Of a stretch of 64,000 nucleotides of DNA, positions 22,719-50,996 are shown piece after piece; position 1 is the first letter of the stretch, and each line of letters starts with the position of its first letter. Origin of the DNA: Acidobacteriota bacterium (GTDB lineage Bacteria; Acidobacteriota; Thermoanaerobaculia; UBA5066; Gp7-AA6); assembly GCA_039933215.1 (NCBI GenBank), contig JBDTOO010000015.1:4501-68500 (forward strand). The letters are read 5' to 3'. The notes beneath the pieces were generated by a model. It had not been told where the DNA came from. It ran no database searches and saw only the letters and a list, made by a program, of their open reading frames with translations. The translations under genes and the position numbers were made by a program.

Positions 22719-23507
22719 TCAGGATTCCGCGCTGAAGAACGTGAGAGGGACGAGGCCGAACTTCAGGACGTCGGCGTTCTGGATCGCCATGGGAGCGCCC
22801 GTGGCGAGACGCTGATCATTGACGAACGTGCCGTTCATGACGCCGATCTCCTCCATCACGTAAAACGTTCCGGCCATCTGGTAGAGCTTCGCGTGGCGCC
22901 GCGAGGTCGAGCGCTGAGTGTCGAGCGGCGTGAGGTCGATGTCGGGAGTGATTCCCGTGACGGGGTCGGCGCGTCCCACGAGGGTATCGCCTTCACGGTT
23001 GAGGAAGAACTCGGGAGTCCCGTTCGCGCCGACGAGGCGGAACACGTCCTTGTGGACGACGGGTTTTCGCGACGGCGGCCTTTCCTCGTCCGGAACGCGG
23101 CGGCCGAGGGCTTCTTCGAGCATCGTCGAGACGTCCCGGACGCGGCGCGAGAGCTTTCGCATCATCCGGATGGCGATCTCCGTGTTGCTGCGGAGCATCG
23201 TGTCGAACATCGCGCCGTTGATCCGCACCACCTCGACGTCCGACTTCGCCCGCGCCGACGCGCTGCGGGGCAGATCCTCGAGGACGCTCATCTCGCCGAA
23301 GAAGTCGCCCTTCTCGAGAGTCGCGAGGACACGGCTCTCCCCCGCGATCGACTTGAAGAGCTCGACCACTCCGGACTGGATGATGTACATCTCGGTCCCG
23401 ATCTCGCCCTCGGAGAAGATGATGTCTCCCATCGGGTGGCTGACGATGTACCGCTCGAAGGGATTCTTGCCTCCGGCCGCGGTCCCCGACTTGAAGACGG
23501 CTTTCAC
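22719..23507 (-). CDS. Cyclic-nucleotide-binding domain protein fused to a C-terminal FHA domain
   Basis: N-terminal cNMP-binding fold (GEIGTEMYIIQSGVVELFK...GDFFGEMSVL). C-terminal FHA fold (TLVGRADP...RRHAKL...GTFYVMEEIGVMNGTFVNDQRL). Confidence 0.7.
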   Translation of the reverse strand: MKAVFKSGTAAGGKNPFERYIVSHPMGDIIFSEGEIGTEMYIIQSGVVELFKSIAGESRVLATLEKGDFFGEMSVLEDLPRSASARAKSDVEVVRINGAMFDTMLRSNTEIAIRMMRKLSRRVRDVSTMLEEALGRRVPDEERPPSRKPVVHKDVFRLVGANGTPEFFLNREGDTLVGRADPVTGITPDIDLTPLDTQRSTSRRHAKLYQMAGTFYVMEEIGVMNGTFVNDQRLATGAPMAIQNADVLKFGLVPLTFFSAES

Positions 23508-24418
23508 CGGACCGCCGGGCCGCCGAAAACGAGGCGTCCGCCGCGCACGGCGTCGGCCTCGAGGGTCACCGGGGCGCCGAGCGGGAGCGTCCGCGCGGCG
23601 GCCAGATGACCGGCGGGAAGCCCGAAGGCCACGGGAAATGGAGCGCCGTCGAAGCGGCCCCGCAGGTACGTCCGGACCGCGTCCGGCGACTCGCCCGCAG
23701 CGGGAACGACGGATCCGATCACCATGGCGCGCAGGCCATCGAGGGTATCCGAGCGCTCCAACTGGGTCAACAGACGGTCGATCCGGTAAATCGCCTCACC
23801 CGTGTCCTCCCAGAAAAGGATGGAATCCCGGCCGCTGACCGCCTCGGGCGTGCCCGCCATCGAGGCGAGGAGCGACAGGCAGCCGCCGACGAGCGGCCCC
23901 TCGCCGCGTCCGGGCGACAGGACGTCCTCGGCGGAAAAGACGTGAGGCTCCGGAGTCGCGCCGGTCAGGATCGCCTCCCAGTCGAGCTTCCCGGCTCCGG
24001 ACATCTCGACCGCCACCATCGGTCCGTAGAAGGTGACGAGACCGGCCGACTTCCCGACGAAAGCAAGAAGCGCCGTGAGATCCGAGCCGCCGAGATGGAT
24101 CTTCGGGTTCGCCGCGACTTCCGCCGGGTCGAGGAGGCCGAGGATCCGGGACGCCCCGTATCCCCCCCGCGCGAAGAAGATCGCGTCGACCGACGGGTCG
24201 GCGAGAAGCCTCCGGTACCCGTCCGCCCGCTGCCGGTCGGTCCCCGCGAGGAACCCATCGACCCGCCCGACGTTTTCCGCGAGGACGACCCGATATCCCC
24301 GCGCTTCGAGGGCCGCGACGCCCGCGGTGAGCCGCGCGGAGTCGACGGGCCCCGAAACCGCAGCCACGCCAATGCGGCCGCCCGGGTGAAGCCGAGGCGG
24401 TCGCAGCGCGTCAGCCAT
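23504..24418 (-). CDS. ldcA: LD-carboxypeptidase (peptidase S66, LdcA-like)
   Basis: S66 motifs including the GGYGASRIL serine region and downstream catalytic His/Glu region. Start taken at the second ATG (MADALRPPRL...) by analogy with LdcA N-termini. The first ATG at 24478 is also possible. Confidence 0.7.
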   Translation of the reverse strand: MADALRPPRLHPGGRIGVAAVSGPVDSARLTAGVAALEARGYRVVLAENVGRVDGFLAGTDRQRADGYRRLLADPSVDAIFFARGGYGASRILGLLDPAEVAANPKIHLGGSDLTALLAFVGKSAGLVTFYGPMVAVEMSGAGKLDWEAILTGATPEPHVFSAEDVLSPGRGEGPLVGGCLSLLASMAGTPEAVSGRDSILFWEDTGEAIYRIDRLLTQLERSDTLDGLRAMVIGSVVPAAGESPDAVRTYLRGRFDGAPFPVAFGLPAGHLAAARTLPLGAPVTLEADAVRGGRLVFGGPAVR

Positions 24419-24544
24419 CTTCTGAGAATGGTAAACGAGGTCATCGAGGTCCGGCGCCGCTCGGTCATCCGGGCTCACATGAGCCAGACCTCTCAGCGCC
24501 GGTCGCGCAGCGACCGCCCGCGCTGAAAGTCACTGCCTGCGCTG

Positions 24545-24940
<396 letters not shown>

Positions 24941-24976
24941 ATCCTATCAGCCGCGACGAAAAGCCACCGCGCCGGC

Positions 24977-25423
24977 CTACTCCCTGTTCCTGGGATCAGC
25001 GAAGTAGTCGAGCCACTCCGAGACGTCGACGCGCTCGGGCTTTCCCGGGGCGGGAGCTCCGGCCGCGACGGCGCGGAACCGCTCCCAGAATTCGGGCGGC
25101 GACAGGGTCTTCGCGCCGGCGGCGCGAGCGCGCCGGGTGAGTTCGCGATCGGCCGTGACGACGGAGATCTCGCCCGGGTCCCGCGCGGCACGGACCTCGC
25201 GAAGGATCGCCTCGTCCGCGGATCCTCCCGCGTCTTTCACGCTCAAGCCTCCGAGCGTGAGCGTCTTTCCCGCGGGCCCGTCGAAGAAGATCCGCACGGA
25301 CGCTCGCCGTCCCCGCAGCCGTTCGGAGACCTCGGCGAGGAGCGCGGCTCGATCCTCCTCCGCGGGCCGGCTCGTGCGCCGGGCGAGGCCGATGAGGTTG
25401 TTCCCGTCGAGAAAGTACGGCAT
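24977..25423 (-). CDS. NYN-domain (YacP-like) predicted RNA-binding protein / ribonuclease
   Basis: ATG verified at 25421-25423 (MPYFLDGNNLIGL...RIFFDG). The Ser/Arg-rich N-terminal 76 aa of ORF 24977..25651 are rejected. Confidence 0.65.
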   Translation of the reverse strand: MPYFLDGNNLIGLARRTSRPAEEDRAALLAEVSERLRGRRASVRIFFDGPAGKTLTLGGLSVKDAGGSADEAILREVRAARDPGEISVVTADRELTRRARAAGAKTLSPPEFWERFRAVAAGAPAPGKPERVDVSEWLDYFADPRNRE

Positions 25424-25439
25424 GACCGGGAGCCGGACG

Positions 25440-26042
25440 TCAGGCGGTCTCGCCCCGGTGGCGGCGCGGATGCTGGATGCGGAAGAAGAGGACCTGCAGG
25501 GCCCGGCGAACTCTCGCGCCGTGCATGACGAGGACCGCGACGAGGGCCGCCAGGAAGAGCGCGGTGAGCCACGGCTGGAAGAAGAGCAGGATCGCGAGCA
25601 TGATCGCGACGATGTCCTCCGCGATCGACAGAACGAGCTGGGCGAACCCACGCGTGGCGGCGGTCGACGTGAGGCGGCTCGTGGATTTCGCCGCGTGCGC
25701 CGCCAGCGTCACGACGGCGGCGAGGGCCGCGACGCCGATCTTCGCCGCGAGCGAGACTTCACCGAGTGCCGCGAGCGCGAGGAGCGAGCCGACGATCGGC
25801 CTCAGGAGCGTCTGCGCGGCCTCCCAGAATCGATCGGCGAGGGGAATCTTGGTCACGACGAATTCCGCGAGGAACATCACGATCGACAGCTGGAGGATCG
25901 CCGGGCTCGCGAGGAAGGCGGCCACCCCGCCGGGGAAGTCCTGCGGCAGGAGGCGATAGAGCCCGTTGTACACGAGGAGAACGGACCACGCGTTCAAGCC
26001 GGCCGCGGCCGCGAGGCCGAGGCCGGTGAGCAGGGGGATCAA
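25440..26042 (-). CDS. DUF4126-family membrane protein
   Basis: Hydrophobic C-terminal 200 aa of ORF 25440..26435 (IPLLTGLGLAAAAGLNAWSVLLVYNG...). Proposed TTG start at 26042 overlaps the stop of the upstream gene (TTGA). Confidence 0.6.
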   Translation of the reverse strand: MIPLLTGLGLAAAAGLNAWSVLLVYNGLYRLLPQDFPGGVAAFLASPAILQLSIVMFLAEFVVTKIPLADRFWEAAQTLLRPIVGSLLALAALGEVSLAAKIGVAALAAVVTLAAHAAKSTSRLTSTAATRGFAQLVLSIAEDIVAIMLAILLFFQPWLTALFLAALVAVLVMHGARVRRALQVLFFRIQHPRRHRGETA

Positions 26043-27685
26043 TTCCGCTGCCGGAAGAGGCGGGAGAAGAGACCCGGGCGGTCGGACGAAGGAGCGGCAT
26101 CGGCCGCGCCGGGCGTCCCCTCTTCCGCGGGATTCTCCCCCGCCTCGGAGGCTCCGAAGCTGGCGTCCGCGAGCGTGAGGGAATCCGGCGCCTTTTCGGG
26201 AAGTGCTCCGAGAAGGATCTGGTCGAGCAGCTCCTGGTTCTCCGGCGTGGGCGCGAGATCCACGGCCCGGCGCGCGAACGTCTCCGCCTCGTCGTCCCTC
26301 CCGTGCTGGTGCAGGGCGCGAGCCGCCGCCCGGATGTAGGGCACTCCGCGCGGAGACAGCCTCGCCGCCTCTTTCAGGTTTTCCAGGCCCTTGGAGATCC
26401 ACATCGAGTTCTTCAACTCGACCATGCCCAGGCAAAGGCGGTACTCCGGATTGTCGGGGACGAACCGGATCGCCTCGCGCAGCATCTCGACCGCGGGATG
26501 AAAGTCCTTCTGCTCGATCAGCTCCCGCGCGCGCGTGAAGCTCTGCCTGGCGAGATTCTTTCGGATCTCCGGGTCGGTGGACGTCTCCGCGACGGCGACC
26601 GAGACAGGAGCGGCGTCGAGGGTGTCGTCGTACTCGGCGCGCCGGGCCGGATCCGACAGGACCTCGTGCGCGAGCTTCAGCCGGTCGAACACCGCCGTCA
26701 GCTCCTTGGCGAACTGCGCGAGGTCGTCGCGGTGGCGCAGGTCCGGATGGAACAGGCGGCTGCGCTCGAAGTACGCCTTGCCAATCTGTTCATCGGATGC
26801 GTTGGCCGGCACGCCCAGGAGCTCGTAGTGCGTGAGCCAGTCGATTCGGCGGTAGGTGTTACGGACGAGCTCGGAGTGACCCGGCGTGCCGTCGCGCGGC
26901 TGCGCGTCGACGACGACGTTCAAGCCTTCGAACCCGCCGGCGACCCGGGGAGCGACGCCGTCCTTCTTCCATTCGACGATGCCGCAGGAGAAGAGCGCAT
27001 AGAGAGTCTTGGCCGTCGCGCCGCGCGAGCCGCCGCCGATCTTGAGGAGGGACTCGAGATCGAGCGCGCCGTCGATGCGGGAGAGGAGATAGGCCTCCTG
27101 CGGCGTCAAGGGAAGGTACTGGTAGCGGGACATCGGATCGGTCGAGAGGATCGGCACCGAGCGCGCCTCGCCGAGCCGGCGCAGGAAGGCCTCGCCCTCC
27201 GGAAGCCGGCGGATTCCCTCGACGATGATGGCGGCGGTCGACAGGGTCAGCGCGACGTCCGGGTCGAGCACTCCCGTCGAGGACTGGAAGCGATATTCCC
27301 CCTCTTCCCACTCGAAGGTCGAGAACACGATCTCCTCGACCAGGCGCCGCATCTCCGCGTCGAGGACCTGGCGGGACACCAGACCCTTCTCCACGAGGAT
27401 CTTTCCGAGACGCGCCCGGCCCTGGCGCGCGACCGTCTCGAGCGCCCACGAGAGGTCCTCGTCGGTGATCCAGCCGCGCCGCTTCAGGAAGGCGCCGATC
27501 CTCTGGCCCTCCCGCGACGAAGTCGCCGTGCGCAGCTCCCCCTTCTCGAAGAAGAGGTGGCGCGTCTCATCGCCGCGGACGAGGGTCAGGGTTCCCTTCA
27601 GCCCCTCGAGGAAGATCCGGCGAAGGACCTGAGGGAGGGGCGTTTCCGCCAGAGAGCCGCGAAATCCGGCGCGCGCTGTGTTCAT
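26039..27685 (-). CDS. DUF4388 (PATAN-like) domain protein with J-domain and TPR region
   Basis: 548 aa. N-terminal DUF4388-like segment (PLPQVLRRIFLEGLKGTLTL). DnaJ J-domain with HPD (YELLGVPANASDEQIGKAYFERSRLFHPDL). TPR-like C-terminus. Confidence 0.75.
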   Translation of the reverse strand: MNTARAGFRGSLAETPLPQVLRRIFLEGLKGTLTLVRGDETRHLFFEKGELRTATSSREGQRIGAFLKRRGWITDEDLSWALETVARQGRARLGKILVEKGLVSRQVLDAEMRRLVEEIVFSTFEWEEGEYRFQSSTGVLDPDVALTLSTAAIIVEGIRRLPEGEAFLRRLGEARSVPILSTDPMSRYQYLPLTPQEAYLLSRIDGALDLESLLKIGGGSRGATAKTLYALFSCGIVEWKKDGVAPRVAGGFEGLNVVVDAQPRDGTPGHSELVRNTYRRIDWLTHYELLGVPANASDEQIGKAYFERSRLFHPDLRHRDDLAQFAKELTAVFDRLKLAHEVLSDPARRAEYDDTLDAAPVSVAVAETSTDPEIRKNLARQSFTRARELIEQKDFHPAVEMLREAIRFVPDNPEYRLCLGMVELKNSMWISKGLENLKEAARLSPRGVPYIRAAARALHQHGRDDEAETFARRAVDLAPTPENQELLDQILLGALPEKAPDSLTLADASFGASEAGENPAEEGTPGAADAAPSSDRPGLFSRLFRQRN

Positions 27686-27808
27686 CGGGGCCTGGCCAGA
27701 CAGGTTAGCAGAACGGGACCGGTGTGGCGCGGCGGGGGCCCCGAAGGCGCGCCCGGCGCCGCCGCCCGCGTCGGGGGGCGAGGCCGGACGCCCTCGGTGG
27801 GGATCAGA

Positions 27809-29680
27809 TCATCGGACGGACACGATCGCGGGATGGTTGGCCGACGTCGTGAAGAACGCCGGGATCCGCCCTTTCGCCCGTTTGGCGGCTTCGAGGCTGG
27901 GATAGCGGCCCCAGAGCACCTTGAAGCAGTCGCGACCGCGATGGCTGGTCTTCAGAAGCCACATCGAACCGGCGGGGCGGTCGTGCTTCCACGCCTCCAC
28001 CAGGGAGGGGACTTCGCAGGCGAGCTCGAGCTGGATGGCGTATCGCGTGGAGCGCTCTCCGTCCAGCCGGCGCCGGTCGCGCGCGGCGCGGGATGCCCAT
28101 GTCCCGGAGGAGGCCCCGGCCGCTGCCGACGAACCGGTTGGCACAGCCGCGGCGCGGGGCGTCGGCGCGGCGTGGGGGGCCGCCGGCCGGACCGTCCGGG
28201 TGGCGGCGGGAGCGGCGGCCGCCCCGGTGGCAGTGGGACGCGTGCTCGGAGCTCTCGGGGCCGTCCGGGTCGGAAGAGGTGCCGCCGTCGCCGGGGCCCG
28301 AGCCGCGGCCGAGGCCGTCGGCGTGGAGGCGGAGCGATCGAGTCCCCGGGCGGGCGTCCCGCGCGGCGCGGGCGCCGACGGAGACACCCGAGCGGGCGCG
28401 GTGGGCGCCAGAGCGGCCGCCGCGGAAAAAGGTGTCAGGGCGGGGGAAGGTGACGAGGTCGCGGAAGGCGTCGCCGCCGGGGCCGCCGCCGGACCCTGCT
28501 CGGACACGGACCGGGAGCGCCAGAAGAGAAGCGCCGCGACCGCGACGACGAGGCCGGCGAAGAACCAGCCGATGATGGTCCCGGAGCCCCGGCGCGGCGG
28601 CTCCGGCGGCTCGTCACCGGGCGGAAGCGGATCGAAGCCCGACGGTCCGGAGGGTCCGCCGGAAAAATCGTCCCGGTCGCTGCGCCCTTCGCGCAGATCG
28701 GGCAGCGGATAGGTATCCAGGGGGGACGAGGAGGACGAGTCCGGCGGGACCACCGGGTCCCAGAGCTCGTTGCGCCGGGTCGCCCGGTCGTTCGAGTCGT
28801 CGAGGCCCGCCACGGACTCAGCGGGGGGCCAGTCCGCCTCCGCCTCCGCCGCCGGGGCTGCGGCCGCCGTCGCGAGGAGCTCCTCCGGGGGGACGCGGCG
28901 CGTGGACTCGAGGTCCTCGGCCGCGATCGCGGCCCCGGCGGCCTCCCGCGATTCCCCGGCCGCTTCCTCCCCGGGAATCCTCTCGGCGCGAACGAGTCCG
29001 AGAGTCGTCAGAGCCGCGAGCAGCTTGTGCACCGCGAACTCGTCGGCGGGGGCGCTGCGCGCGATCTCCGCCGCAGTCGACTGCCCGTCGATCAACCGAA
29101 CGACCGATTCCGCGTCGGCGGTCAGGCCGAAGGTTGCGAACTCGTGCTCGAAGTCTTCGGAGCGCACGAGCGGCGCATCCGTCGCCCCGAGCTGGTGGTC
29201 GACGAAGTGCCGGTCTCGCGACCGGAGGAAGAGCTCCAGGAGGAGCCGCGGGACCGCGACCGTGAACTCTCCGGCGGCGGGCCGAGCGTCGGCGTCGAAG
29301 TAGTACTTGCCCTCGGACCAGGAGAGGAGGTCCGCCAGGATCTCGATCGCGCGGATCTTCTCTCCCCATCGCCATTCCCGCCGGGTGAGGATCCCCGCCT
29401 GGAGCGCGGCGAGGGATGCGTCGCTTCCCTCGGGGATCGCGAGGCGTTCGAGCGCGGCGGCGTCGAGCTTCGACGCGCGCACGAGGATCGCGGCGCTTTC
29501 GAACCGCGGCTCTATCGAGGAGACGGAGACCACCTCTCCGTCCACGAGGGAGAAGGAGCCCGACGCGCCCGGGCGGGAGAACGAGACGACTCCCGTCGTC
29601 CGCTGGCGCCAGAACGCGACGAAGGCAGCGAGGAGATCGACATCCCGGATGTCGCCGGCGGTCTCGAATTCGGTCTTCAT
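27809..29680 (-). CDS. DUF4388 (PATAN-like) domain protein with Pro/Ala-rich linker, TM helix and C-terminal SPOR domain
   Basis: ATG verified at 29678-29680 (MKTEFETAGDIRDVDLLAAFVAF...), overlapping the uvrC stop as ATGA. TM helix IIGWFFAGLVVAVAALLFW. C-terminal SPOR-like domain (RYAIQLELACEVPSLVEAW...KVLWGRYPSLEAAKRAKGRIPAFF). The remainder of the 1240-aa ORF is uvrC in another frame. Confidence 0.7.
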   Translation of the reverse strand: MKTEFETAGDIRDVDLLAAFVAFWRQRTTGVVSFSRPGASGSFSLVDGEVVSVSSIEPRFESAAILVRASKLDAAALERLAIPEGSDASLAALQAGILTRREWRWGEKIRAIEILADLLSWSEGKYYFDADARPAAGEFTVAVPRLLLELFLRSRDRHFVDHQLGATDAPLVRSEDFEHEFATFGLTADAESVVRLIDGQSTAAEIARSAPADEFAVHKLLAALTTLGLVRAERIPGEEAAGESREAAGAAIAAEDLESTRRVPPEELLATAAAAPAAEAEADWPPAESVAGLDDSNDRATRRNELWDPVVPPDSSSSSPLDTYPLPDLREGRSDRDDFSGGPSGPSGFDPLPPGDEPPEPPRRGSGTIIGWFFAGLVVAVAALLFWRSRSVSEQGPAAAPAATPSATSSPSPALTPFSAAAALAPTAPARVSPSAPAPRGTPARGLDRSASTPTASAAARAPATAAPLPTRTAPRAPSTRPTATGAAAAPAATRTVRPAAPHAAPTPRAAAVPTGSSAAAGASSGTWASRAARDRRRLDGERSTRYAIQLELACEVPSLVEAWKHDRPAGSMWLLKTSHRGRDCFKVLWGRYPSLEAAKRAKGRIPAFFTTSANHPAIVSVR

Positions 29681-31488
29681 GCGCTGATCACCCTCCCCTG
29701 CTCGAGATAAATCGCCACGGCGCGCGCGGTCGCGGGCCCCACGGCAGCTTCGACGTCCCGCGGATCGGCCGCGGCGAGCCCCGCCAACGAGCCGAAACGA
29801 CGGAGGAGGATGCGGGCCCTCGTCGGGCCCACACCCGGAATGTCCGTGAGACTCGTCTCGCGCATCCGCTTCGAACGGCGTCCGCGATGCCGCGTGATCG
29901 CGAACCGGTGCGCCTCGTCGCGCAGGCGCTGGATCAGCTTCAGCGCCGGGTCCTTCGCCGACAGGCGGATGGGATCGGGGCGCCCGGGAGCCCAGATCTC
30001 CTCCTCCCGCTTGGCGAGTCCGACGACCGGCAGCTCGATGCCGAGGCGATCGAGCGCGGCGAGCGCCGCCTGCAGCTGTCCCCGCCCGCCGTCGACGAGG
30101 ACGAGATCGGGCATCGGTCCGCTTTCCTCGCGGACGCGCCGGTACCGCCGCTCGACGGCCTCCGCCATGCTTTTGAAGTCGTCCGGCGCGAGGAGGCTCT
30201 GCGATGCGATGCCGAAGAGCCGATAGTCGGACTTCTTCGGCTTGCCGTCCTCGAAGACCACCACGGACGCGACGCTGTCGGTGCCCTGGAGATGCGAGAT
30301 GTCGAAGCCTTCGATCCGCCGCGGCGGAACCGGCAGGTCGAGCACCCGGGCCAGGCGCTCGACGCCGAGCTCTTCCTCGCCGCCCACGCGCCGGAAGCGG
30401 ACGCGATGGCGCTCCCGGGCGTTCGTGTTCGCGAGCTCGACCCGATCGACCGCCGGACCGCGCTTCGGCACGCGCACGACGACCCGGGCCTCGCGCCGCG
30501 CGAGGAGGAATTCCTCGAGCAGGGCGCAGCTCGGGATCTCGACCGGCAGGTGGACCTCGTCCGGGAGAAACGGATTGACGTCGTAGTACTGGGGCAGAAA
30601 CGCGTCCAGGAACGCGGCCGGCTGGACCTCCTCCGATTTCTCGAAGAAGAACTCCCGGCGATCCTGGAGCGCCCCGCCCCGGACGACGAGGAGGCAGAGG
30701 GAGACGTCGCCGCCGGACTCGAAGAACCCGAACACGTCCGCGCTCTCCCCCTTCATGGACTGGACGAGCTGCCGCTCGGCGACGTCCTGGACGGTCCGGA
30801 CCGCGTCCCGGTACGCCGCCGCCATCTCGTAGTTCTCGAGAGTCGCGGCCTCCGTCATCTTCGCCTCCAGCCGCGGCAAGAGCTCCCGGTTCCGGCCCTG
30901 GAGGAAGAGGATCACGTCCCGGACGGCGTCGGCGTACGCCTCCCGCGTCGTCAACCCCGCCACGCACGGGCCGAGGCACGCGTGGAGGTCGTAGTACAGG
31001 CAGGGGCGCGGAAGCTTCCCGTCGATCTCGATCGAGCAGGTCCGGATCTGGAAATGGCGCGTGATCATCCGCATGATCCGCCGCGCGAGCCCGCCCCAGA
31101 AGGGACCGAAGTACGAGTGCCCGTCGTTTTGGACCCGCCGCGTGACGAGCGCGCGCGGCCACGGCTCCCCCGTCGTCACCTTGATGTAGGGGTAAGTCTT
31201 GTCGTCCCGCAGGCAGATGTTGTAGCGGGGGCGGTGCTTCTTGATGAGGGTGTTCTCGAGGAGAAGCGCCTCGAGCTCGGTGTTCGTGACGATCGTCTCC
31301 AGGTCCGTGAAGGCCCGCAGGAGCGCGTCCGTCTTCGAGCTCTCGATGCCGCGGGTGAAGTAGGACGCCACCCGCTTCTTGAGGGAGCGGGCCTTCCCGA
31401 CATAGAGGATCTTTCCCCGGGCGCCCTTGAAGAGGTAAACGCCGGGCGCGTCGGGGACGTTTTGCGGCGGCGCCGCGCTCACGGGCAT
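29677..31488 (-). CDS. uvrC: Excinuclease ABC subunit C
   Basis: GIY-YIG N-terminal domain (PGVYLFKGARGKILYVGKARSLKKRV), UvrBC-interaction region, RNase-H-like endonuclease domain and HhH C-terminus. Start placed at the second ATG (MPVSAAPP...) to leave room for the divergent small gene. Confidence 0.9.
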   Translation of the reverse strand: MPVSAAPPQNVPDAPGVYLFKGARGKILYVGKARSLKKRVASYFTRGIESSKTDALLRAFTDLETIVTNTELEALLLENTLIKKHRPRYNICLRDDKTYPYIKVTTGEPWPRALVTRRVQNDGHSYFGPFWGGLARRIMRMITRHFQIRTCSIEIDGKLPRPCLYYDLHACLGPCVAGLTTREAYADAVRDVILFLQGRNRELLPRLEAKMTEAATLENYEMAAAYRDAVRTVQDVAERQLVQSMKGESADVFGFFESGGDVSLCLLVVRGGALQDRREFFFEKSEEVQPAAFLDAFLPQYYDVNPFLPDEVHLPVEIPSCALLEEFLLARREARVVVRVPKRGPAVDRVELANTNARERHRVRFRRVGGEEELGVERLARVLDLPVPPRRIEGFDISHLQGTDSVASVVVFEDGKPKKSDYRLFGIASQSLLAPDDFKSMAEAVERRYRRVREESGPMPDLVLVDGGRGQLQAALAALDRLGIELPVVGLAKREEEIWAPGRPDPIRLSAKDPALKLIQRLRDEAHRFAITRHRGRRSKRMRETSLTDIPGVGPTRARILLRRFGSLAGLAAADPRDVEAAVGPATARAVAIYLEQGRVISA

Positions 31489-31562
31489 AAACAAGTGTAA
31501 CGCGCCGGATCTGCAAGCGATTTCGCGCCACGGCCGGCCCGGCGCGGTATCATTCGCCACCG

Positions 31563-31769
31563 ATGATCGAGTGCCCTTACTGCTACAAAGCGGTCAAGCC
31601 CCAGGACGCCGTCTGCCCTCACTGCGGCAAGCCGATCGAGCGGTGGCAGACGGGGTTCTACAGCCGTCAGCAGCTGCCCGCCAAATCCCGCAACGCCGTG
31701 TGGATCGGCGCCGCCCTCCTCTTCCTTCTGGTACTCGCGGGCTTCGCGAAGTCCTGCCACTGGCTGTAA
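31563..31769 (+). CDS. Small zinc-ribbon membrane protein (68 aa), hypothetical
   Basis: CPYC...CPHC double Cys pair, then a TM helix AVWIGAALLFLLVLAGFA. No strong Shine-Dalgarno sequence upstream. Confidence 0.4.
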   Translation: MIECPYCYKAVKPQDAVCPHCGKPIERWQTGFYSRQQLPAKSRNAVWIGAALLFLLVLAGFAKSCHWL

Positions 31770-31958
31770 CGTCGCCTCCGCGGTCGCGCTGCGCGCGACC
31801 GCTCCGGCTCCCGCCGCGTGAGGCTCCTCCCTCCCTTCGGTCGGGAGACTCCTCACGCGGCGAGCGGTCATCGCCGGCCGGGCGGGGGCGACTCCAGGGC
31901 GCGTGAGGGCCTTTGGGGGTGAGACGGCGTCTGAAAGGGTGACGGGCGCCTGAAAGAT

Positions 31959-34040
31959 CTACCTGAAGATCTGCAGCTCTCGCAGGGAGCGGAGCTCGTC
32001 GCGCAGCTGGGCGGCGCGTTCGAAATCGAGGGCCTTGGCGGCCGCCTTCATCGTCTTCTCCAGGTCGGCGATGCGGGTGCGCAGGGTCTCGGAGTCCGGC
32101 ACCGCCGGCCCGTCTTTCGGCGGAAGCAAACCGTCGTGGTAGTCCATGCTCGCCATGCGGACGAGCGGCGAGTCGATCTGCTTGATGATGGAAGCGGGCT
32201 CGATCCCGTTCTCCCGGTTGTAGGTCTCCTGGATCGCCCGGCGGCGATTCGTTTCGGACATGGCGCGCCGCATCGATTCGGTGACGACGTCGGCGTAGAA
32301 GTAGACGCGGCCCTGGAGGTTTCGGGCGGCGCGGCCCGCGGTCTGGATGAGGGACGTCTCGCTGCGCAGGAACCCTTCCTTGTCGGCGTCCAGGATGGCG
32401 ACGACCGCGACCTCCGGGAGGTCGAGTCCCTCTCGCAGCAGGTTGATGCCGATCAGGCAGTCGAAGATCCCGCGCCGGAAGTCGGCGAGGATCGTGACGC
32501 GGTCGAGCGTCTCGATGTCCGAGTGGAGGTAACGGCAGCGGACTCCCACCTCGGCGAAGTAGGACGTCAGCTCCTCGGCCATGCGCTTGGTCAGAGTGGT
32601 CACGAGAACGCGTTCGTTGCGGGACGCGGCTTCGCGCACGACCCCGAGGAGGTCGTCGACCTGTCCCTTCACGGGCCGCACCTCGATCTGCGGATCGAGG
32701 AGCCCCGTCGGGCGAATGACCTGCTCGACGACCTCGCCCCCCGTCGCCGCGAGCTCCTCCTTCGCGGGAGTCGCGCTCACGTTCAAGATCTGGCCGATCC
32801 GCCCCTGGAATTCCTCGTAGGTCAGGGGCCTGTTGTCCAGCGCGGACGGGAGCCGGAACCCGTACTCGACCAGCACTTCCTTGCGGGAGCGGTCGCCGAA
32901 GAACATCCCGCGAACCTGGGGCAGCGTGACGTGCGACTCGTCCACGACGAGGAGGAAGTCGGAGGGAAAATAGTCGATGAGCGTCGGCGGAGGCTCGCCG
33001 GCGCGGCGCCCGGAGAGATGCCGGGAGTAGTTCTCGATGCCGTTGCAGTAGCCGAGCTCCTTGATCATCTCGAGATCGAACATCGTCCGCTGGTGCAGGC
33101 GCTGAGCTTCGAGCAGCCGGTTGCCTGCCGTGAGCTCGGCGAGGCGCTGATCGAGCTCGATCTTGATCGTGTCGACGGCGCGGTCGAGCGTCTCGCGCGG
33201 CGTGGCGTAGAAGGTCCTCGGATAGATCGCCAGGCGCTCGACGCGCCGGAGCGCGGTTCCCCGGAGAGGATCGGTCCGGCTGATCTTTTCGATCTCGTCG
33301 CCGAAGTACTCGACCCGGACCGCGACGTCCTCGTACGCCGGGTGGATCTCGACGACGTCCCCGCGGACGCGAAATGTTCCGCGGATCAGGTCCATGTTCG
33401 TGCGCTCGTACTGCATCTGCACGAGCTGCGCGAGGAGCGCCGGCATCCCCGAGCGGTCGCCGACCGAGATGTAGGCGAGCATGTCGTAGTACGAGTCCGG
33501 CGCCCCGAGTCCGTAAATGCAGGACACCGACGCCACCACGATCACGTCGCGCCGCTCGAAGAGCGCTTTCGACGCCGAAAGGCGCAGCTTGTCGATCTCC
33601 TCGTTGCGCGACGTTTCCTTCTCGATATACGTGTCCGACTGTGGGATGTAGGCCTCGGGCTGGTAGTAGTCGTAGTAGGAGACGAAATACTCGACCGAGT
33701 TCTCGGGGAAGAATCCGCGGAACTCCTGGTAGAGCTGCGCCGCCAGGGTCTTGTTGTGGGAGAGAACGAGCGTCGGGCGATTCACCGTCTCGATCACCTT
33801 GGCGACCGTGAACGTCTTGCCCGAGCCGGTCACGCCGAGGAGGACCTGGTTGCGCCGGCCCTCCCGGAGACCTTCCACGAGCCGGTCGATCGCCTGGCCC
33901 TGATCCCCCTGGGGCGTGAAATCCGTGACGAGGCGAAACTGCCCGCCCGTCCGGGCCTGCGCGTCGCGATAGGACCCGGGCTTCGACTCGAGCGACAGCG
34001 GCGCGTCGGGCCGCGGCCTGGCCCCGGGGCGGGGGCTCAC
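31959..34040 (-). CDS. uvrB: Excinuclease ABC subunit B
   Basis: Core matches UvrB ([24 protein letters not shown]...GVTGSGKTF Walker A; beta-hairpin; C-terminal UvrC-interaction helix). No ATG lies near the conserved N-terminus. Start given at an in-frame GTG (34040); a CTG at 33998 or the distal ATG at 34229 are alternatives. Confidence 0.9.
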
Positions 34041-34161
34041 GACCCTGCCATCCCGGCGGCGCGACGCGGGCGGGTCGGGAAAGAGTGGGAAGGGGGCACG
34101 AGAGCGGCAAACAGATCCCGGGCCGCCCGAATTTCGAGAGGCCGGAAGGGGCGGAAACGGG

Positions 34162-34659
34162 TCAGGGCGACCGGCCCGGGGAGGGCGTGAGCGCGGGGGA
34201 CGCCGGGGACGGCGACGGAGTCGGCGCAACGGGACTGCCGGCGGCCTCGCGGAACGCTTCCGTGAGCTCCCGCACCTGCTCCCGGGAGATCTGGTTCTGC
34301 GGGCCGCCCCGCAGGATCACTCCGCGCACGCGCTCGAGCGAGCGGGTGTTCGCGGTTCCCTGCTTCATGCGGTCGCGGAAGGCGGCGTAGGCCGCGCGCA
34401 GGTCCGCCTTCTCGGCTTCGGTGACGTCCGGCGCGTAGTGGCCCTCCACCTGCTTCATGACGTAATCGGTGATCGCCTGGGGGTTGCGCCGCAGGTAGAG
34501 CATCCCGGCGATCAGGCAGATCAGGATGAGAAGCGCCGCGATGCCGCAGCCGATGAGGCCGTTCTTCAGGCACCCGCTTCGCGGCGTGGCGGGAGGCGGG
34601 ATCGGGACCGCGTAGCCGGGGGGCGGCGGGACGCTGCTCACGGAGGAAACATATCGCAT
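34162..34659 (-). CDS. Membrane-anchored hypothetical protein (165 aa)
   Basis: N-terminal Pro-rich stretch. One TM helix ([22 protein letters not shown]). Soluble domain with no recognisable family. Pro/Ser/Ala-rich C-terminus. Confidence 0.5.
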
Positions 34660-34696
34660 CGCCGGCCGGTCTTCGAGGGACCGGGAAGAGTCCCCG

Positions 34697-34907
34697 AAGG
34701 TGAAGGTCAGAGGTGAGAGGGAAGAGGTCAGAGGGAACGGTCAGAGTGGTGGAAGGGTGACGGTCGCCGTCGGAAGGCGTCAGCACTCCATCGGCTTCTC
34801 CGCCCGGTGACCAGGGCTGCTGTCACCCGTCACCCGTCACCCGTGACCGGTCCCACCCGTCACCGGTCCGTCTCACCTCTCCCCCTCCCACCTCCACCTC
34901 TCTCCTC
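34697..34907. repeat. Intergenic polypurine/polypyrimidine imperfect inverted repeat with short tandem motifs
   Basis: A purine-rich arm at 34697-34767 contains GGTCAGAG three times and GGTGAGAGG. A pyrimidine-rich arm at 34821-34907 contains GTCACCC three times in tandem and CCTCTCACC-like reverse complements of the left-arm motifs. Confidence 0.5.
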
Positions 34908-34943: not shown

Positions 34944-37340
34944 GTGTCCGTCGTCCGGCGCGTGTCGCTCTTCGTCCTTCCCCTCGTCGCGGTCGGGCTT
35001 CTGGGCGCTCTGGCGGGGTCGGCCACCACGAGCTTCGTCCGGGTTCCCCGCGTCTCGGAGCTCGAAACCTACCGCCCGGACATCATCACCGAGATCCGCG
35101 GCAACGACGGCTCGACGATCGCGCGGTACGCCATCGAACGGCGCATCCTGGTCACGCGCGGCGAGATCCCGACGGTCCTGAAGAACGCGATCGTCGCGAC
35201 GGAAGACAAGAACTTCTACCGGCACGGGGGCATCGACCTGACGCGCACGATCTCCGCGGTCGCCGCGAACCTGCGTTCGCACCGCTACTCGCAGGGCGGC
35301 TCGACGCTCACGCAGCAGCTCGCGCGGGCGATCTTCCTCTCCCCCCGCAAGACGATCTCCCGGAAGGTGAACGAGGCGTTCGTGGCTTTCGAGATCGAGC
35401 GGCGGTACTCGAAGGACCAGATCCTGACGATGTACGTCAACGAGATCTACCTCGGCCATGGCAACTACGGGTTCGAGGCCGCGGCGCGGTATTACTTCGG
35501 CAAGAGCCTGAAGGACCTCTCCGTCGCGCAGGCGGCGCTTCTCGCGGGCATCGTGCAGCGGCCCGAGGACCAGTCGCCCTTCCGGAGCGCGATCCTCGCC
35601 GCGGGACGCCGTGCGACGGCGCTCCGACGCATGGAGGCGGAGCGCTACATCACGGCCGCCGAGCGCCGTGCGGCCGAGGCCGAGCCCCTGCCCGCCTCCC
35701 CCTCGCTCAAGGAGACGGTCGTCGCGCCCTATTTCTGCGAGGAGATCCGGCAGTACCTGGAGCGCACGTACGGCGAGAAGGACCTCTACCGGCGCGGGCT
35801 CCGCGTCGACTCGACGCTCGATCCCGAGCTGCAGGCCTGGTCGGAGGAGGCGGTCGGCTGGGGCCTTCGGCGGCTCGCGCGGCGGCACGGCTTTCGCCGG
35901 CCGCGAAACCTGACCGCGGAGGGCTACGCGAGCCTCGACACCTACGTGGATCCCACCTGGGAAGGCGCGAAGCTCGCGGAGGGCGACACGCTGCGCGGGG
36001 TGGTCCTCTCCGTGACCGCGACCTCGGCCGAGGTCCGCGTGGGCAAGGAGAGGCTGCCGCTGCGGCCGTCCGGCTACGGCTGGACGAGCGCGAGAGTGCT
36101 GACGAAGATCCTGAAGCCGGGCGACCTCGTCACCGTCACCGTCCAGAAGGGGAAAGATGGCGGCGCCCTCGCTCTCGACCAGGAGCCGACCGAGCAGGCC
36201 GCGCTCCTGATCCTCGAGAACTCGACGGGCGCCGTGCGGGCGATGGTCGGCGGATACGACTGGACGACCTCGAAGTTCAACCGCGCGACCCAGGCGCTCC
36301 GCCAGGCGGGCTCGACGTTCAAGCCGTTCGTGTACCTCGCGGCCCTCGAGTCGGGTTACACGCCTTCGGACACGATCTTCGACGGTCCGATCGCGATCGT
36401 CATGGATCCGCGCATGCCGGCGTGGCGCCCCGTCAACTACGACCGCAAGTTTCGAGGGATCGTCACGCTGCGCGTTGCGCTCGAGCATTCGATCAACGTC
36501 CCGACCGTCCGTCTCGCGCAGCTCGTCGGCCTCCAGCGGGTCATCGAGGCCGCTCACCGGCTCGGGATCCACGAGAGGCTCCAGGCCTATCCCTCCCTGG
36601 CGCTTGGCGCGTTCGAAGTCTCGCTGATGGAGATGACGTCGGCCTACACGGTGTTCGCCAACCAGGGGCTCGCCTTCCCTCCCTACACGTTCGAAAGGAT
36701 CTCCGACGCGAACGGCGATCCGCTCGAGAAGACCCACCCCGACGCGCGTGAGGTCACGAGCCCACAGGCATCTTTTCAGCTTCTCGAGATGCTGAAGGGC
36801 GTGACCCAGCGCGGCACCGGCGCCGCGGCGGCGAGCCTCAAGCTGAACATCGCCGGCAAGACCGGCACCACGAGCGACTACACGGACGCCTGGTTCATCG
36901 GGATGAATCCTCGCTACACCGTGGGTGTCTGGGTCGGCAACGATCTGAAGACGACCCTGGGATCGGGGATGGAGGGCGCCCGGGTCGCGCTCCCCATCTG
37001 GATGCGGCTCCTCCAGAAGATGAAGGACCAGGGCCGCCTCGACCCGAAGTCCGACTTCGATCCGCCGCCGAACGTCGTCTTCACGGCGGTCGACTACGAG
37101 ACGGGATTGAAGGCGACACCCGGAAGCCCCCGGCCGATCCTGGAGTCGTTCGTCAGCGGGTCGCAGCCGACGGAGGAGTGGAGCTCCAAGTGGGAGGAGA
37201 TCACGCGTCTCCCCTGGTCTCTCCAGAAATCCTTCTACGTGCCCAAGAAGGGCGAGGGCGCCGACGACGTTGGGGCCGCTCCCGCCGATACCGCCTCTCC
37301 CGCGCCTCCCGCGCCTCCCGCGACGCCGCCTCCGCACTGA
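34944..37340 (+). CDS. mrcA: Penicillin-binding protein 1A (bifunctional glycosyltransferase/transpeptidase)
   Basis: 798 aa. N-terminal TM anchor. GT51 motifs (EDKNFYRHGGID; RKVNEAFVA). Transpeptidase SxxK/SxN/KTG motifs (STFKPFVY; KTGTT). Confidence 0.85.
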   Translation: MSVVRRVSLFVLPLVAVGLLGALAGSATTSFVRVPRVSELETYRPDIITEIRGNDGSTIARYAIERRILVTRGEIPTVLKNAIVATEDKNFYRHGGIDLTRTISAVAANLRSHRYSQGGSTLTQQLARAIFLSPRKTISRKVNEAFVAFEIERRYSKDQILTMYVNEIYLGHGNYGFEAAARYYFGKSLKDLSVAQAALLAGIVQRPEDQSPFRSAILAAGRRATALRRMEAERYITAAERRAAEAEPLPASPSLKETVVAPYFCEEIRQYLERTYGEKDLYRRGLRVDSTLDPELQAWSEEAVGWGLRRLARRHGFRRPRNLTAEGYASLDTYVDPTWEGAKLAEGDTLRGVVLSVTATSAEVRVGKERLPLRPSGYGWTSARVLTKILKPGDLVTVTVQKGKDGGALALDQEPTEQAALLILENSTGAVRAMVGGYDWTTSKFNRATQALRQAGSTFKPFVYLAALESGYTPSDTIFDGPIAIVMDPRMPAWRPVNYDRKFRGIVTLRVALEHSINVPTVRLAQLVGLQRVIEAAHRLGIHERLQAYPSLALGAFEVSLMEMTSAYTVFANQGLAFPPYTFERISDANGDPLEKTHPDAREVTSPQASFQLLEMLKGVTQRGTGAAAASLKLNIAGKTGTTSDYTDAWFIGMNPRYTVGVWVGNDLKTTLGSGMEGARVALPIWMRLLQKMKDQGRLDPKSDFDPPPNVVFTAVDYETGLKATPGSPRPILESFVSGSQPTEEWSSKWEEITRLPWSLQKSFYVPKKGEGADDVGAAPADTASPAPPAPPATPPPH

Positions 37341-46138: not shown

Positions 46139-47542
46139 ATGCCCCGCCTCGGCCAGCTGCTCGTGCGAGCCGACCTCGTATCGGAGAACAACCTCGCCCG
46201 GGCGCTCGGCGTGCAGAATTTCGCAGGGGGCCGGCTCGGAACGCTGCTGCTCGAGAGAGGCTCCGTGAGCGAGGACGAACTCGGCAAGACGCTCGCGCAG
46301 CAGCATGGGTGCGAGTACGTGCCGTGGCGGCTTCTCGCCGACGTTCCGATGGGGACGATCGCGGCCCTCCCGGCGAAGTTCGCGATCAAGCATTCCGCGG
46401 TGCCCTACGACCGCTCCGAGAACGTCCTGAAGCTCGTCCTGCGGGATCCTTCGGATCTGCGGATCTTGGACGAGCTCTTCTTCGTGACGGGCCGCAAGAT
46501 CATCGCGGGCGTCGCGCCGGAGGTTCGCGTCTACCAGGCGCTCGAGAAGTACTACGGCGAGAGGCGTACCCCGCGCTTCGCCATCCTCGCCGAGAAGCTC
46601 TCGCGCCCCGTTCGATCCGCCCGGAGCGAGACGAGCGCCCCGCCTCCCCCGCCGAGCTTCTTTCCCGAGACCGAGCGCGCGGAGGAGCGGCTTCCGGACG
46701 CGCAGGAAATCTGGGGCGACTCGTCGGACGCCGATCTGGCGCTGGGCCCTCCGATCGTCCAGTCGTGGCGGACGACGACGGAGCCGCACGGCGGATGGGC
46801 CGGGACCTCCTCCCAGATGGGCGATGCCCGGCTGTCGGGGGACGTCGACGCGATCTCCTGGGAGGAGATGCCGCCGGCGGCCCCCGGCCCGCCCTCCGCT
46901 TCCTCCGCTTCCTCCGCGACGCCGGCGCTCGGCGCCGGGTCGGCTCATGAATCCCCCGCTTCTCCGCAGGCCCCCTCCGTGCCTGCTCCCGCCGCGCGCC
47001 CGGCGCCGGTCGCCGGATTGCCCCCGATGGCGGCGCCTCCGGAGCGGGCTATGCCGAGAACGGCGGCAGCGGACGACTTCACAGCGATCGCGGAGGCGAA
47101 CGACCGGGACACGATCGCGGTCGCTGCCCTGTCCGCGATGGCCCCCCGTTTCGTGCGGTCCGCGCTCTTTGCGGCGCGGCCCGACCGCGTCCAGGGCTGG
47201 GCGGGCGGCGGCGAGCTCGATCCCGTTCGGATCCGCGCGATCGCGATCCCCTGGAAGGAGGGGTCGGTCTTCCTGAACGTGCGCCTCTCCCGGTCCTTCT
47301 ATCTCGGCCCCCTGCTGCGGCTCCCCCGGCACGAGGATCTCGCGCTCGCGACGGGGGGCTGGCCGGAGGAGTGCGTCGTGATGCCCATCCTGATCCAGGA
47401 CAAGCCGGCCGCCTTTCTCTACGCCGAGGGCCCCGCCGAACGGGGGGTCACCCCGATGGACCTCGTCTTCCTGCGGGAGCTCTCCCGGGCGGCCGCCGCG
47501 GGGCTCTCGCGGGCCATCCGTATGAAGAAGAAAGAGATATAA
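46139..47542 (+). CDS. MshEN/T2SSE_N-type N-terminal domain protein with disordered linker and GAF-like C-terminal domain
   Basis: Two tandem 24-aa motifs RLGQLLVRADLVSENNLARALGVQ and RLGTLLLERGSVSEDELGKTLAQQ match the c-di-GMP-binding MshEN consensus (RLGxx[LVI][LVI]xxG[LVI][LVIF]xxxxLxxxLxxQ). The C-terminus is GAF-like. Confidence 0.7.
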   Translation: MPRLGQLLVRADLVSENNLARALGVQNFAGGRLGTLLLERGSVSEDELGKTLAQQHGCEYVPWRLLADVPMGTIAALPAKFAIKHSAVPYDRSENVLKLVLRDPSDLRILDELFFVTGRKIIAGVAPEVRVYQALEKYYGERRTPRFAILAEKLSRPVRSARSETSAPPPPPSFFPETERAEERLPDAQEIWGDSSDADLALGPPIVQSWRTTTEPHGGWAGTSSQMGDARLSGDVDAISWEEMPPAAPGPPSASSASSATPALGAGSAHESPASPQAPSVPAPAARPAPVAGLPPMAAPPERAMPRTAAADDFTAIAEANDRDTIAVAALSAMAPRFVRSALFAARPDRVQGWAGGGELDPVRIRAIAIPWKEGSVFLNVRLSRSFYLGPLLRLPRHEDLALATGGWPEECVVMPILIQDKPAAFLYAEGPAERGVTPMDLVFLRELSRAAAAGLSRAIRMKKKEI

Positions 47543-50534: not shown

Positions 50535-50996
50535 TCAGGAGCCGGCGGGCGAGGCGCCGGGGATGTCGACGACGAAGGTGGCGGGGCCGTCGTTGACGAG
50601 CGACACGCGCATCGCCTCGCCGAAGACGCCTCTCTCGACGCGGAAACCCGCGAGCTCGAGCGCCGCGCAGAAATGGTCGTAGATCGGGCGGGCGTCCGGG
50701 CCGGGCAACGCCTTCTCGAATCCCGGCCGGCGCCCGCGGGAGAGGTCGGCCGCGAGCGTGAACTGCGAGACCGCCAGGATGGCGCCGCCGACGTCCGAGA
50801 GGCCGAGGTTCATGTGACCTCGATCGTCCTCGAACACGCGCAGGCCCGCGACCTTGCGTGCGGCCGCTTCCGCGGTCGCGCTCCCGTCGCCGCGCTCGGC
50901 TCCGAGCAGGACGAGGAACCCGCGCTCGATGGCGGCCACGCGCCGCCCCTCGACCTCGACCTCGGCGCTCGCGACGCGCTGGACGACGAGCCTCAT
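50535..50996 (-). CDS. dtd: D-aminoacyl-tRNA deacylase
   Basis: 153 aa (MRLVVQRVASAEVEV...SQFTL...NDGPATF). 4-nt overlap with murJ. Confidence 0.85.
   Translation of the reverse strand: MRLVVQRVASAEVEVEGRRVAAIERGFLVLLGAERGDGSATAEAAARKVAGLRVFEDDRGHMNLGLSDVGGAILAVSQFTLAADLSRGRRPGFEKALPGPDARPIYDHFCAALELAGFRVERGVFGEAMRVSLVNDGPATFVVDIPGASPAGS

Follow-up and report, generated by a model that had tools for sequence, protein, structure and literature searches.

A PATAN domain with an MshEN_N-like insertion in a J-protein encoded next to a predicted DamX-like SPOR protein in Thermoanaerobaculia

The window analysed here, a 64,000-nucleotide stretch of contig JBDTOO010000015.1 (positions 4,501 to 68,500, forward strand) from the Acidobacteriota bacterium assembly GCA_039933215.1, contains two adjacent genes of the minus strand, transcribed in the same direction as the uvrB and uvrC genes upstream of them. 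They encode proteins that we call A and B. Both proteins start with a PATAN domain (DUF4388, PF14332) followed by a winged-helix-like subdomain. They end differently: A continues into a single transmembrane (TM) helix and a predicted SPOR domain, and B into a J-domain and tetratricopeptide repeats (TPRs). The features of the two genes are as follows (minus strand throughout; scores are given in bits against the gathering score of the respective Pfam model).

27809..29680, minus strand: gene of protein A, 623 aa, with PATAN domain, winged helix, acidic linker, TM helix, a linker rich in Pro, Ala, Ser and Thr (PAST-rich), and SPOR domain
29228..29659, minus strand: A residues 8-151, PATAN/DUF4388 domain with an apparently degenerate alpha-clip (Pfam 35.9 vs 25)
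28976..29188, minus strand: A residues ~165-235, winged-helix-like subdomain after PATAN, collinear with B residues 166-240, the fold being predicted from the model of B
28586..28975, minus strand: A residues 236-365, acidic, Pro-rich, presumably cytoplasmic linker of ~130 aa, recognised by composition and not conserved
28517..28585, minus strand: A residues 366-388, single TM helix (Kyte-Doolittle maximum 2.43)
28076..28516, minus strand: A residues 389-535, variable Ala/Pro/Ser/Thr-rich, presumably periplasmic linker of ~147 aa
27812..28075, minus strand: A residues 536-623, a conserved helix and then the predicted DamX-like SPOR domain (profile, AlphaFold2 and Foldseek; below threshold in Pfam)
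26039..27685, minus strand: gene of protein B, 548 aa, with PATAN domain carrying an MshEN_N-like insertion, winged helix, J-domain, TPRs and amphipathic tail
27197..27661, minus strand: B residues 9-163, PATAN/DUF4388 domain (Pfam 78.9 vs 25, E 4e-22; AlphaFold2 pLDDT, predicted local distance difference test, 92)
27341..27502, minus strand: B residues 62-115, tandem MshEN_N-type motifs with a 6-residue spacer (NCBIfam NF053729, profile matches in the PDB, AlphaFold2 and Foldseek)
26966..27193, minus strand: B residues ~165-240, winged-helix-like subdomain
26627..26833, minus strand: B residues 285-353, J-domain (PF00226, 57 vs 27.8), with the HPD motif at residues 313-315 (window positions 26741-26749)
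26219..26536, minus strand: B residues 384-489, TPRs (Pfam TPR_14, 35.5 vs 23.5; other TPR models below threshold)
26042..26074, minus strand: B residues 538-548, C-terminal tail GLFSRLFRQRN, a putative amphipathic membrane-targeting helix recognised by its conservation

The original prediction, made from the letters of the sequence, had placed both genes correctly with respect to coordinates and strand, and the DUF4388 starts of the two proteins, the TM helix of A, and the HPD-bearing J-domain and TPRs of B that it named all agree with the scores and positions listed above. It had allowed for the possibility that the two open reading frames (ORFs) are one frameshifted gene; this can be ruled out, since they lie 123 nt apart and two genes are present in all 76 related genomes with enough flanking sequence. 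A and B have a G+C content at third codon positions (GC3) of 0.86 and 0.88, respectively, the coding signature of this genome (G+C of the window ~70%), whereas the long plus-strand ORFs across A and B show the inverse GC3 pattern and are shadow ORFs. A protein identical to A (P0121), from a metagenome-assembled genome of an Acidobacteriota bacterium, carries the NCBI name "DUF4388 domain-containing protein", and close homologs of both A and B come from metagenome-assembled genomes of Thermoanaerobaculia.

The most informative feature of the pair is the insertion in the PATAN domain of B, which the original prediction did not name, just as it did not name the degenerate counterpart in A, the amphipathic tail of B or the overlap of B with the downstream DUF4126 gene. 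The insertion consists of RIGAFLKRRGWITDEDLSWALETV, the spacer ARQGRA, and RLGKILVEKGLVSRQVLDAEMRRL. Judging from profile and model comparisons, it is homologous to MshEN_N, the four-helix motif that binds cyclic di-GMP (c-di-GMP), and has kept the core of that motif. MshEN domains contain two 24-residue motifs of the form RLGxxLVxxGhhxxxxLxxxLxxQ, and the isolated MshEN_N binds c-di-GMP with a sub-micromolar Kd (Wang et al., PMC5013675). The NCBIfam model NF053729 ("c-di-GMP_motif", cyclic di-GMP-binding domain, MshE-related) matches B residues 62-108 with 39.0 bits (cut-off 38). A profile built from B and 31 distant members of its family (alignment A2) retrieved from the PDB the T. thermophilus PilF (6F8L, E 3e-25), the N-domain of V. 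cholerae MshE (5HTL, E 2.4e-11) and the N-termini of several PilB proteins. In the match to MshE, profile positions 54-110 pair gap-free with residues 7-63, which correspond to the 53-residue c-di-GMP site. The AlphaFold2 model of B places four helices at residues 63-123, between the beta-strands 50-56 and 130-135, and local Foldseek matches of this model include the GSPII-B domain of PilF with c-di-GMP (probability 0.91) and the PilB N-terminus (0.97). Both repeats keep R, L/I, G, L6, G10, h11/12, L17 and L21, which are invariant or nearly so among 121 orthologs. Throughout the family, each motif retains R1, G3, L6 and G10. B resembles the MshEN/GSPII receptors (V. cholerae MshE, T. thermophilus PilF, PilB) in its four-helix unit and in the tandem pair of motifs, most positions of which it keeps, but the unit of B, a putative ligand-binding site, lies inside a PATAN domain, is accompanied by neither MshEN_C nor an ATPase domain, and departs from these receptors in the terminal Gln and in the spacer.

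These departures are among the points that weigh against nucleotide binding. The terminal Gln (Q24) is replaced in both repeats (by V85 and L115), the hydrophobic position h7 of repeat 1 is occupied by Lys, the spacer has 6 residues vs 5 in the MshEN motif, the score of NF053729 exceeds the cut-off by only 1 bit, and the Pfam MshEN model (PF05157) has no match on B. Q32 of MshE has been called pivotal (PMC12943098), and Wang et al. noted that many MshEN domains have lost binding, the non-binder XpsE carrying Q61V among other changes (PMC5013675). All this could mean that the alpha-clip of B, i.e. the two-repeat, four-helix part of the PATAN domain, is a protein-protein surface rather than a nucleotide receptor, and that B acts constitutively as a J-protein adaptor that takes no input from a second messenger. 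It would agree with the first proposal for the alpha-clip, as an interaction module homologous to the N-termini (N1 domains) of the ATPases of type II secretion systems and type IV pili (Makarova et al. 2006, as cited in bioRxiv 10.1101/2021.06.11.447907). We regard such a purely adaptor role, which overlaps with other readings discussed below, as rather unlikely: the Arg, Gly, Leu and Gly of both repeats of B are invariant or nearly so, 12 of the 14 positions that we rated as key, taking the XpsE changes as a guide, are kept, a spacer longer by 2 residues is found also in the PilB sequences matched by the profile, and A has lost both Arg and both Gly, a contrast which argues for selection on these residues in B. 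Binding of c-di-GMP by B is therefore, in our judgment from the sequence, likely. A literature search found no paper that treats the alpha-clip of PATAN-J proteins as a nucleotide site, and searches for PATAN together with DnaJ and for Thermoanaerobaculia together with c-di-GMP returned nothing.

Two further genes of the window, at 46139-47542 and 47860-49488 (both plus strand), encode adjacent proteins of 467 and 542 aa, in which an N-terminal MshEN domain is the only recognised domain. NF053729 scores 48.7 bits on the former and 35.6 bits on the latter (cut-off 38), and neither protein has the ATPase domain of type II secretion or type IV pilus systems. They are probably orphan c-di-GMP receptors, and their presence indicates that the MshEN type of receptor is in use in this organism.

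A and B are not significantly similar in BLASTP (E 0.073), so that their homology had to be assessed by profile-profile comparison. Alignment of the A-family N-terminus (alignment A3) with the B family (A2) by hhalign gave 99.4% probability and an E-value of 1.3e-21 over 232 collinear columns, including those of the alpha-clip, where A appears to match the four helices seen in the model of B. At the RxG triplets, RIG of B is replaced by E61-S62-A63 in A, and RLG by D87-A88-S89, with D87 invariant. NF053729 found no match on A at E<=1, and the A-family profile found no MshEN match in the PDB. As A lacks the RxG triplets and matches neither NF053729 nor MshEN, the pair appears to combine one module with an intact ligand-motif core (B) and one degenerate, ligand-blind paralog (A). 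We conclude that A and B are probably a conserved pair of paralogous PATAN, alpha-clip and winged-helix modules with different output ends.

The output end of A had been predicted to be a SPOR domain following a TM helix and a Pro/Ala/Ser/Thr-rich linker. This assignment is upheld by profile and fold comparisons and fails in Pfam. The SPOR model (PF05036) has no match on full-length A; given the C-terminus alone, it reaches 12.9 bits (E=0.15), below the gathering cut-off of 21. On the other hand, a profile built from 27 orthologous C-termini (alignment A1) retrieved from the PDB a single match, the SPOR domain of DamX (2LFV, E=0.004, chain residues 16-88), which spans the whole domain. The AlphaFold2 model of this region (pLDDT 92.4) has the order beta-alpha-beta-beta-alpha-beta (E16-23, H26-33, E42-49, E52-62, H65-72, E87-90), and ranks 1-4 of the Foldseek search with this model are the SPOR domains of DamX, CwlC, DedD and RlpA (probability 0.98-1.0, TM score ~0.55). 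Several orthologs of A bear the JGI name "septal ring-binding cell division protein DamX". Hence, on the evidence of profile and predicted fold, we accept the C-terminus of A as a divergent DamX-like SPOR domain. The Gln of strand beta-1 is invariant in the A family. Two Cys residues of the domain are invariant as well (residues ~559 and ~589, i.e. C24 and C54 of alignment A1), and one of them aligns with the Trp of the "GQPWYV" stretch of DamX; this Trp (W385) is needed for septal localisation. Its replacement and the failure in Pfam both weigh against the reading preferred below. The two Cys may form a periplasmic disulfide; the SPOR domain of FtsN contains a disulfide.

A hydropathy peak comparable to that of the TM helix of A is present in 120/120 homologs, and the sequence suggests that A is a bitopic inner-membrane protein with a cytoplasmic N-terminus. 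In this respect it resembles DamX, DedD and FtsN of E. coli, which are likewise bitopic with the N-terminus inside: a lone TM helix is followed by a periplasmic linker of low complexity, and SPOR forms the C-terminus. The conserved Gln of strand beta-1 is a further similarity. Unlike A, none of the three has a cytoplasmic part composed of a PATAN domain and a winged helix, and A departs from them further in the SPOR peculiarities described above. The linkers of A contain no conserved short motif fit to be a TPR ligand (120 homologs), and no tandem DNA repeats underlie the PAST-rich one.

Downstream of its winged helix, which is not basic and whose fold is reminiscent of the peptide-binding RRE/Lrp type, B has the make-up of a class C J-protein. 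Class C (type III) J-proteins with TPRs include the eukaryotic DNAJC3/p58IPK and DNAJC7, and DjlA of E. coli is a membrane J-protein. With these B shares a J-domain located away from the N-terminus, the absence of a G/F or zinc-finger region, and the presence of TPRs or a membrane anchor; it differs in the order J-domain then TPRs, in the N-terminal, putatively sensory PATAN domain, and in that its attachment to the membrane would rely on an amphipathic tail, not on a TM helix. The HPD motif is kept in 121/121 orthologs of B. The tail GLFSRLFRQRN follows a hypervariable linker and is itself conserved across all orthologs sampled, and distant PATAN-J-TPR proteins terminate in comparable basic, amphipathic sequences (e.g. 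TIFSKLFKKK, SFLKKLFKKE). We take the tail to resemble the membrane-targeting sequence of MinD, and B would accordingly be bound peripherally to the membrane. No dnaK gene turned up among the genes of the window that were scanned.

The original prediction regarded the fusion of PATAN with a J-domain and TPRs as unusual. This does not hold. We searched 1.84 billion cluster representatives with B(1-254) and found the 230-residue module comprising PATAN, its insertion and the following domain in 8976 representatives at E<=1e-3 and in 3046 at E<=1e-10. Among the 76 nearest representatives, 75 have DUF4388, 41 have DnaJ and ~35 have TPRs, while others have response receiver (REC), protein kinase or GGDEF domains; PATAN-J-TPR is a common, uncharacterised architecture. 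Some proteins contain two to five tandem PATAN modules, including PATAN x2 + DnaJ (P0276) and PATAN x2 + TPR (P0243). Given that such double-PATAN polypeptides with a J-domain or TPRs exist, paired action of PATAN modules is plausible. The SPOR model is not among the 25 commonest Pfam families in relatives of the B module, and PATAN-TM-SPOR was seen only in the A family, which numbers 328 proteins; all those with an organism name are from Acidobacteriota or Thermoanaerobaculia. The architecture of A is thus lineage-specific, whereas all the domain families, and the families of both A and B, are already catalogued. In B-like proteins of sister lineages (P0245, P0246, P0251, P0254, P0255, P0257, P0268), HPD is changed to DPD, DPA, RVD, RPE etc. 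One of them, P0246 (locus L083, 3977-5548), has no match to DnaJ in Pfam and is the only one confirmed to have the same synteny. The J-domains of these proteins are probably inactive, and the loss of HPD implies that activation of DnaK is not a conserved core function of the wider family.

The genes around the pair (minus strand) are as follows.

34229..31959, minus strand: uvrB
29677..31560, minus strand: uvrC (ORF and translation), whose TGA overlaps the ATG of A as ATGA
25440..26042, minus strand: DUF4126 membrane-protein gene (Pfam DUF4126, E 6.7e-32), whose TTG start overlaps the stop of B as TTGA
24977..25651, minus strand: YacP-like NYN-domain gene, next in the same direction (Pfam NYN_YacP, E 3e-8), with the true start probably inside the ORF
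24548-24929, minus strand: full-length class A RNase P RNA (rnpB; Rfam 273 bits vs gathering score 100)
22719-23507, minus strand: gene, within the syntenic block, of a cyclic-nucleotide-binding (cNMP) protein that ends in an FHA domain

Downstream of B the order is DUF4126, YacP-like NYN, RNase P RNA, LD-carboxypeptidase (LdcA), cNMP-binding/FHA and recG. The ORFs listed across rnpB (e.g. 24700-25140 and 24785-25528, both plus strand) are spurious. Between 24000 and 32000 the RNase P RNA was the sole real Rfam match, and it lies outside A and B. PADLOC found no defence-system match for A, B, DUF4126 or YacP. Peptidoglycan-related genes near the pair encode an LD-carboxypeptidase (S66; 23504-24478, minus strand), a class A penicillin-binding protein (34944-37340, plus strand) and MurJ (50993-52579, minus strand); this may be coincidental clustering of housekeeping genes.

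A scan limited to one genome per species yielded 80 Thermoanaerobaculia loci. The order uvrB-uvrC-A-B-DUF4126-YacP-LdcA-cNMP/FHA-recG, with rnpB between YacP and LdcA, is kept in all of them wherever the contig reaches, and the nine genes keep their strand as well. Wherever there is enough flank (76/76 loci), B is immediately preceded by the part of A that encodes SPOR, and two divergent lineages (L082 and L083, in which the uvrC ortholog carries UvrC Pfam annotations) retain uvrC-A-like-B-like-DUF4126(-YacP), with B modules 58% and 50% identical to that of B. The cNMP/FHA protein is 71-95% identical in most of the 80 loci and 50-56% in a few divergent ones. The ATGA overlap of uvrC and A, noted already in the original prediction, is real, and a 4-nt overlap is present in 22/22 loci readable at both ends. 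Gaps between A and B range from 14 to 265 nt. The junction of B with DUF4126 was read from the sequence as TTGA at 26039-26042 (minus strand) and suggests translational coupling of the J-protein with this uncharacterised multi-pass membrane protein. A promoter scan of 24400-34800 found no promoter-like sites, and the 5 terminator-like sites in the same interval are no excess over shuffled sequences (4.1 +/- 1.9), so that the operon limits are drawn from overlaps and gaps only. Gene order and overlaps support a transcription unit, probably uvrC-A-B-DUF4126-YacP, in which cotranscription with uvrC is plausible. An apparent fusion of B with DUF4126 (P0075) reads as a frameshifted, truncated gene call, with an out-of-frame-looking segment and without the tail, and was not used as Rosetta-stone evidence.

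Cotranscription with uvrC, if real, together with the constant ATGA overlap and the presence of uvrB and recG in the same block, could point to a checkpoint in which A and B tie cell division to DNA repair. We consider this very improbable: neither protein has a DNA-related domain, the properties of the winged helix mentioned above do not point to DNA, and housekeeping genes often share operons without sharing a function.

Starting from the observed domain identities, motif conservation, gene order and overlaps, we infer c-di-GMP binding, septal localisation, membrane binding, contact between A and B, and activation of DnaK. The reading we tentatively prefer, with a confidence somewhat short of even, is that B is a c-di-GMP-responsive J-protein that works at the membrane together with A as a septal SPOR anchor. 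The SPOR domain of A would bind denuded septal glycan and thereby place the cytoplasmic PATAN domain of A at the division site, where, devoid of nucleotide-binding residues, it could serve as a ligand-blind docking partner. B would be held on the membrane by its amphipathic tail, sense c-di-GMP with its alpha-clip, bind a partner or client with its TPRs, and locally activate DnaK through its HPD-bearing J-domain. A and DUF4126 are candidate partners of the PATAN, winged-helix and TPR surfaces of B; c-di-GMP on B might alter the engagement of its PATAN domain with the PATAN domain of A and/or with DUF4126, and the altered engagement might gate the recruitment of Hsp70 to the envelope or septum. 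A stricter version, a split sensor/anchor pair in which c-di-GMP on the insertion of B controls docking on the ligand-blind PATAN of A and Hsp70 is delivered to the septum, appears to us quite unlikely as it stands. The role in a divisome- or polarity-linked module suggested in the original prediction may likewise be proposed from the domain identities; nothing in the window supports the link to small GTPases that it mentioned. We know of no bacterium for which c-di-GMP, the DnaK system and septal peptidoglycan have been described as directly linked.

By analogy, the single elements of the preferred model have precedents, the sub-micromolar binding by MshEN_N being one of them. In M. xanthus, four proteins combine PilZ with a DnaK or a DnaJ domain (PMC8316039). 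As in B, a c-di-GMP receptor-type domain is fused there to a component of the Hsp70 system; they differ in that the receptor is PilZ and not MshEN_N in a PATAN domain, in that they come from another phylum, and in that B adds TPRs and a membrane tail. Regulators of the PatA type use their PATAN domains to bind partners associated with the membrane (bioRxiv 10.1101/2021.06.11.447907). These PATAN-REC proteins (Anabaena PatA; Synechocystis PixG, PixE and LsiR) share with A and B the PATAN domain with its two-repeat alpha-clip, but A and B lack REC, have a winged helix after PATAN, and end in TM + SPOR (A) or J + TPR (B).

The same family brings up another function. PixG, PixE and others bind PilB1/PilC through their PATAN domains, which localise to the membrane, and SgnC is needed for social motility of M. 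xanthus (bioRxiv 10.1101/2021.06.11.447907). The pair could accordingly regulate type IV pili or motility and polarity, with PATAN docking on PilB/PilC as in PatA-type proteins and SgnC, A acting as a peptidoglycan-anchored landmark in the manner of FimV/HubP, and B contributing the TPRs. The conserved block contains no pil genes, however, A and B have no REC domain, and SPOR targets septal rather than polar peptidoglycan, which makes this role highly doubtful. FimV/HubP proteins have a peptidoglycan-binding periplasmic domain, a TM helix, a long acidic cytoplasmic region and TPR-type surfaces, and the acidic cytoplasmic linker of A together with the TPRs of B resembles this composition; they differ from the pair in having an N-terminal LysM instead of a C-terminal SPOR domain and in being a single polypeptide, and no homology was detected.

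Several observations weigh against a partnership of A and B. Since the whole uvrB-recG block is syntenic, their adjacency is weak evidence of it; nine genes, among them unrelated housekeeping ones (uvrB, uvrC, recG, LdcA, with rnpB in between), keep order and strand in 80 species. The TTGA overlap ties B more tightly to DUF4126 than to A, and PATAN-J-TPR proteins occur elsewhere without an A-like partner, as in locus L081 with its lone PATAN-J-TPR gene. The two could thus be independent neighbours in a frozen region, A being a lineage-specific DamX-like SPOR division protein and B a general membrane-associated J-protein, perhaps acting with DUF4126. We take this to be possible but somewhat unlikely: a rare module of 230 residues is common to A and B over its full length, and one copy has lost the ligand motif, a pattern typical of an active and a degenerate partner, and the pair persists in lineages in which identity is only 50-58%.

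If A and B are not partners and B is no receptor, the locus encodes an ordinary lineage-specific DamX-like protein beside an ordinary specialised J-protein. The pairing of an intact and a degenerate PATAN module beside a J-domain is undescribed, and we know of no biochemical function assigned to PATAN domains since 2006. Should the preferred reading of a c-di-GMP-responsive J-protein working with a septal anchor be true, the alpha-clip as a nucleotide pocket, present in active and degenerate versions side by side, would provide a testable function for PATAN. PATAN-J-TPR proteins would then represent a large unstudied class of c-di-GMP effectors acting through Hsp70, and Thermoanaerobaculia would exemplify the pairing of such an effector with an anchor to septal peptidoglycan.

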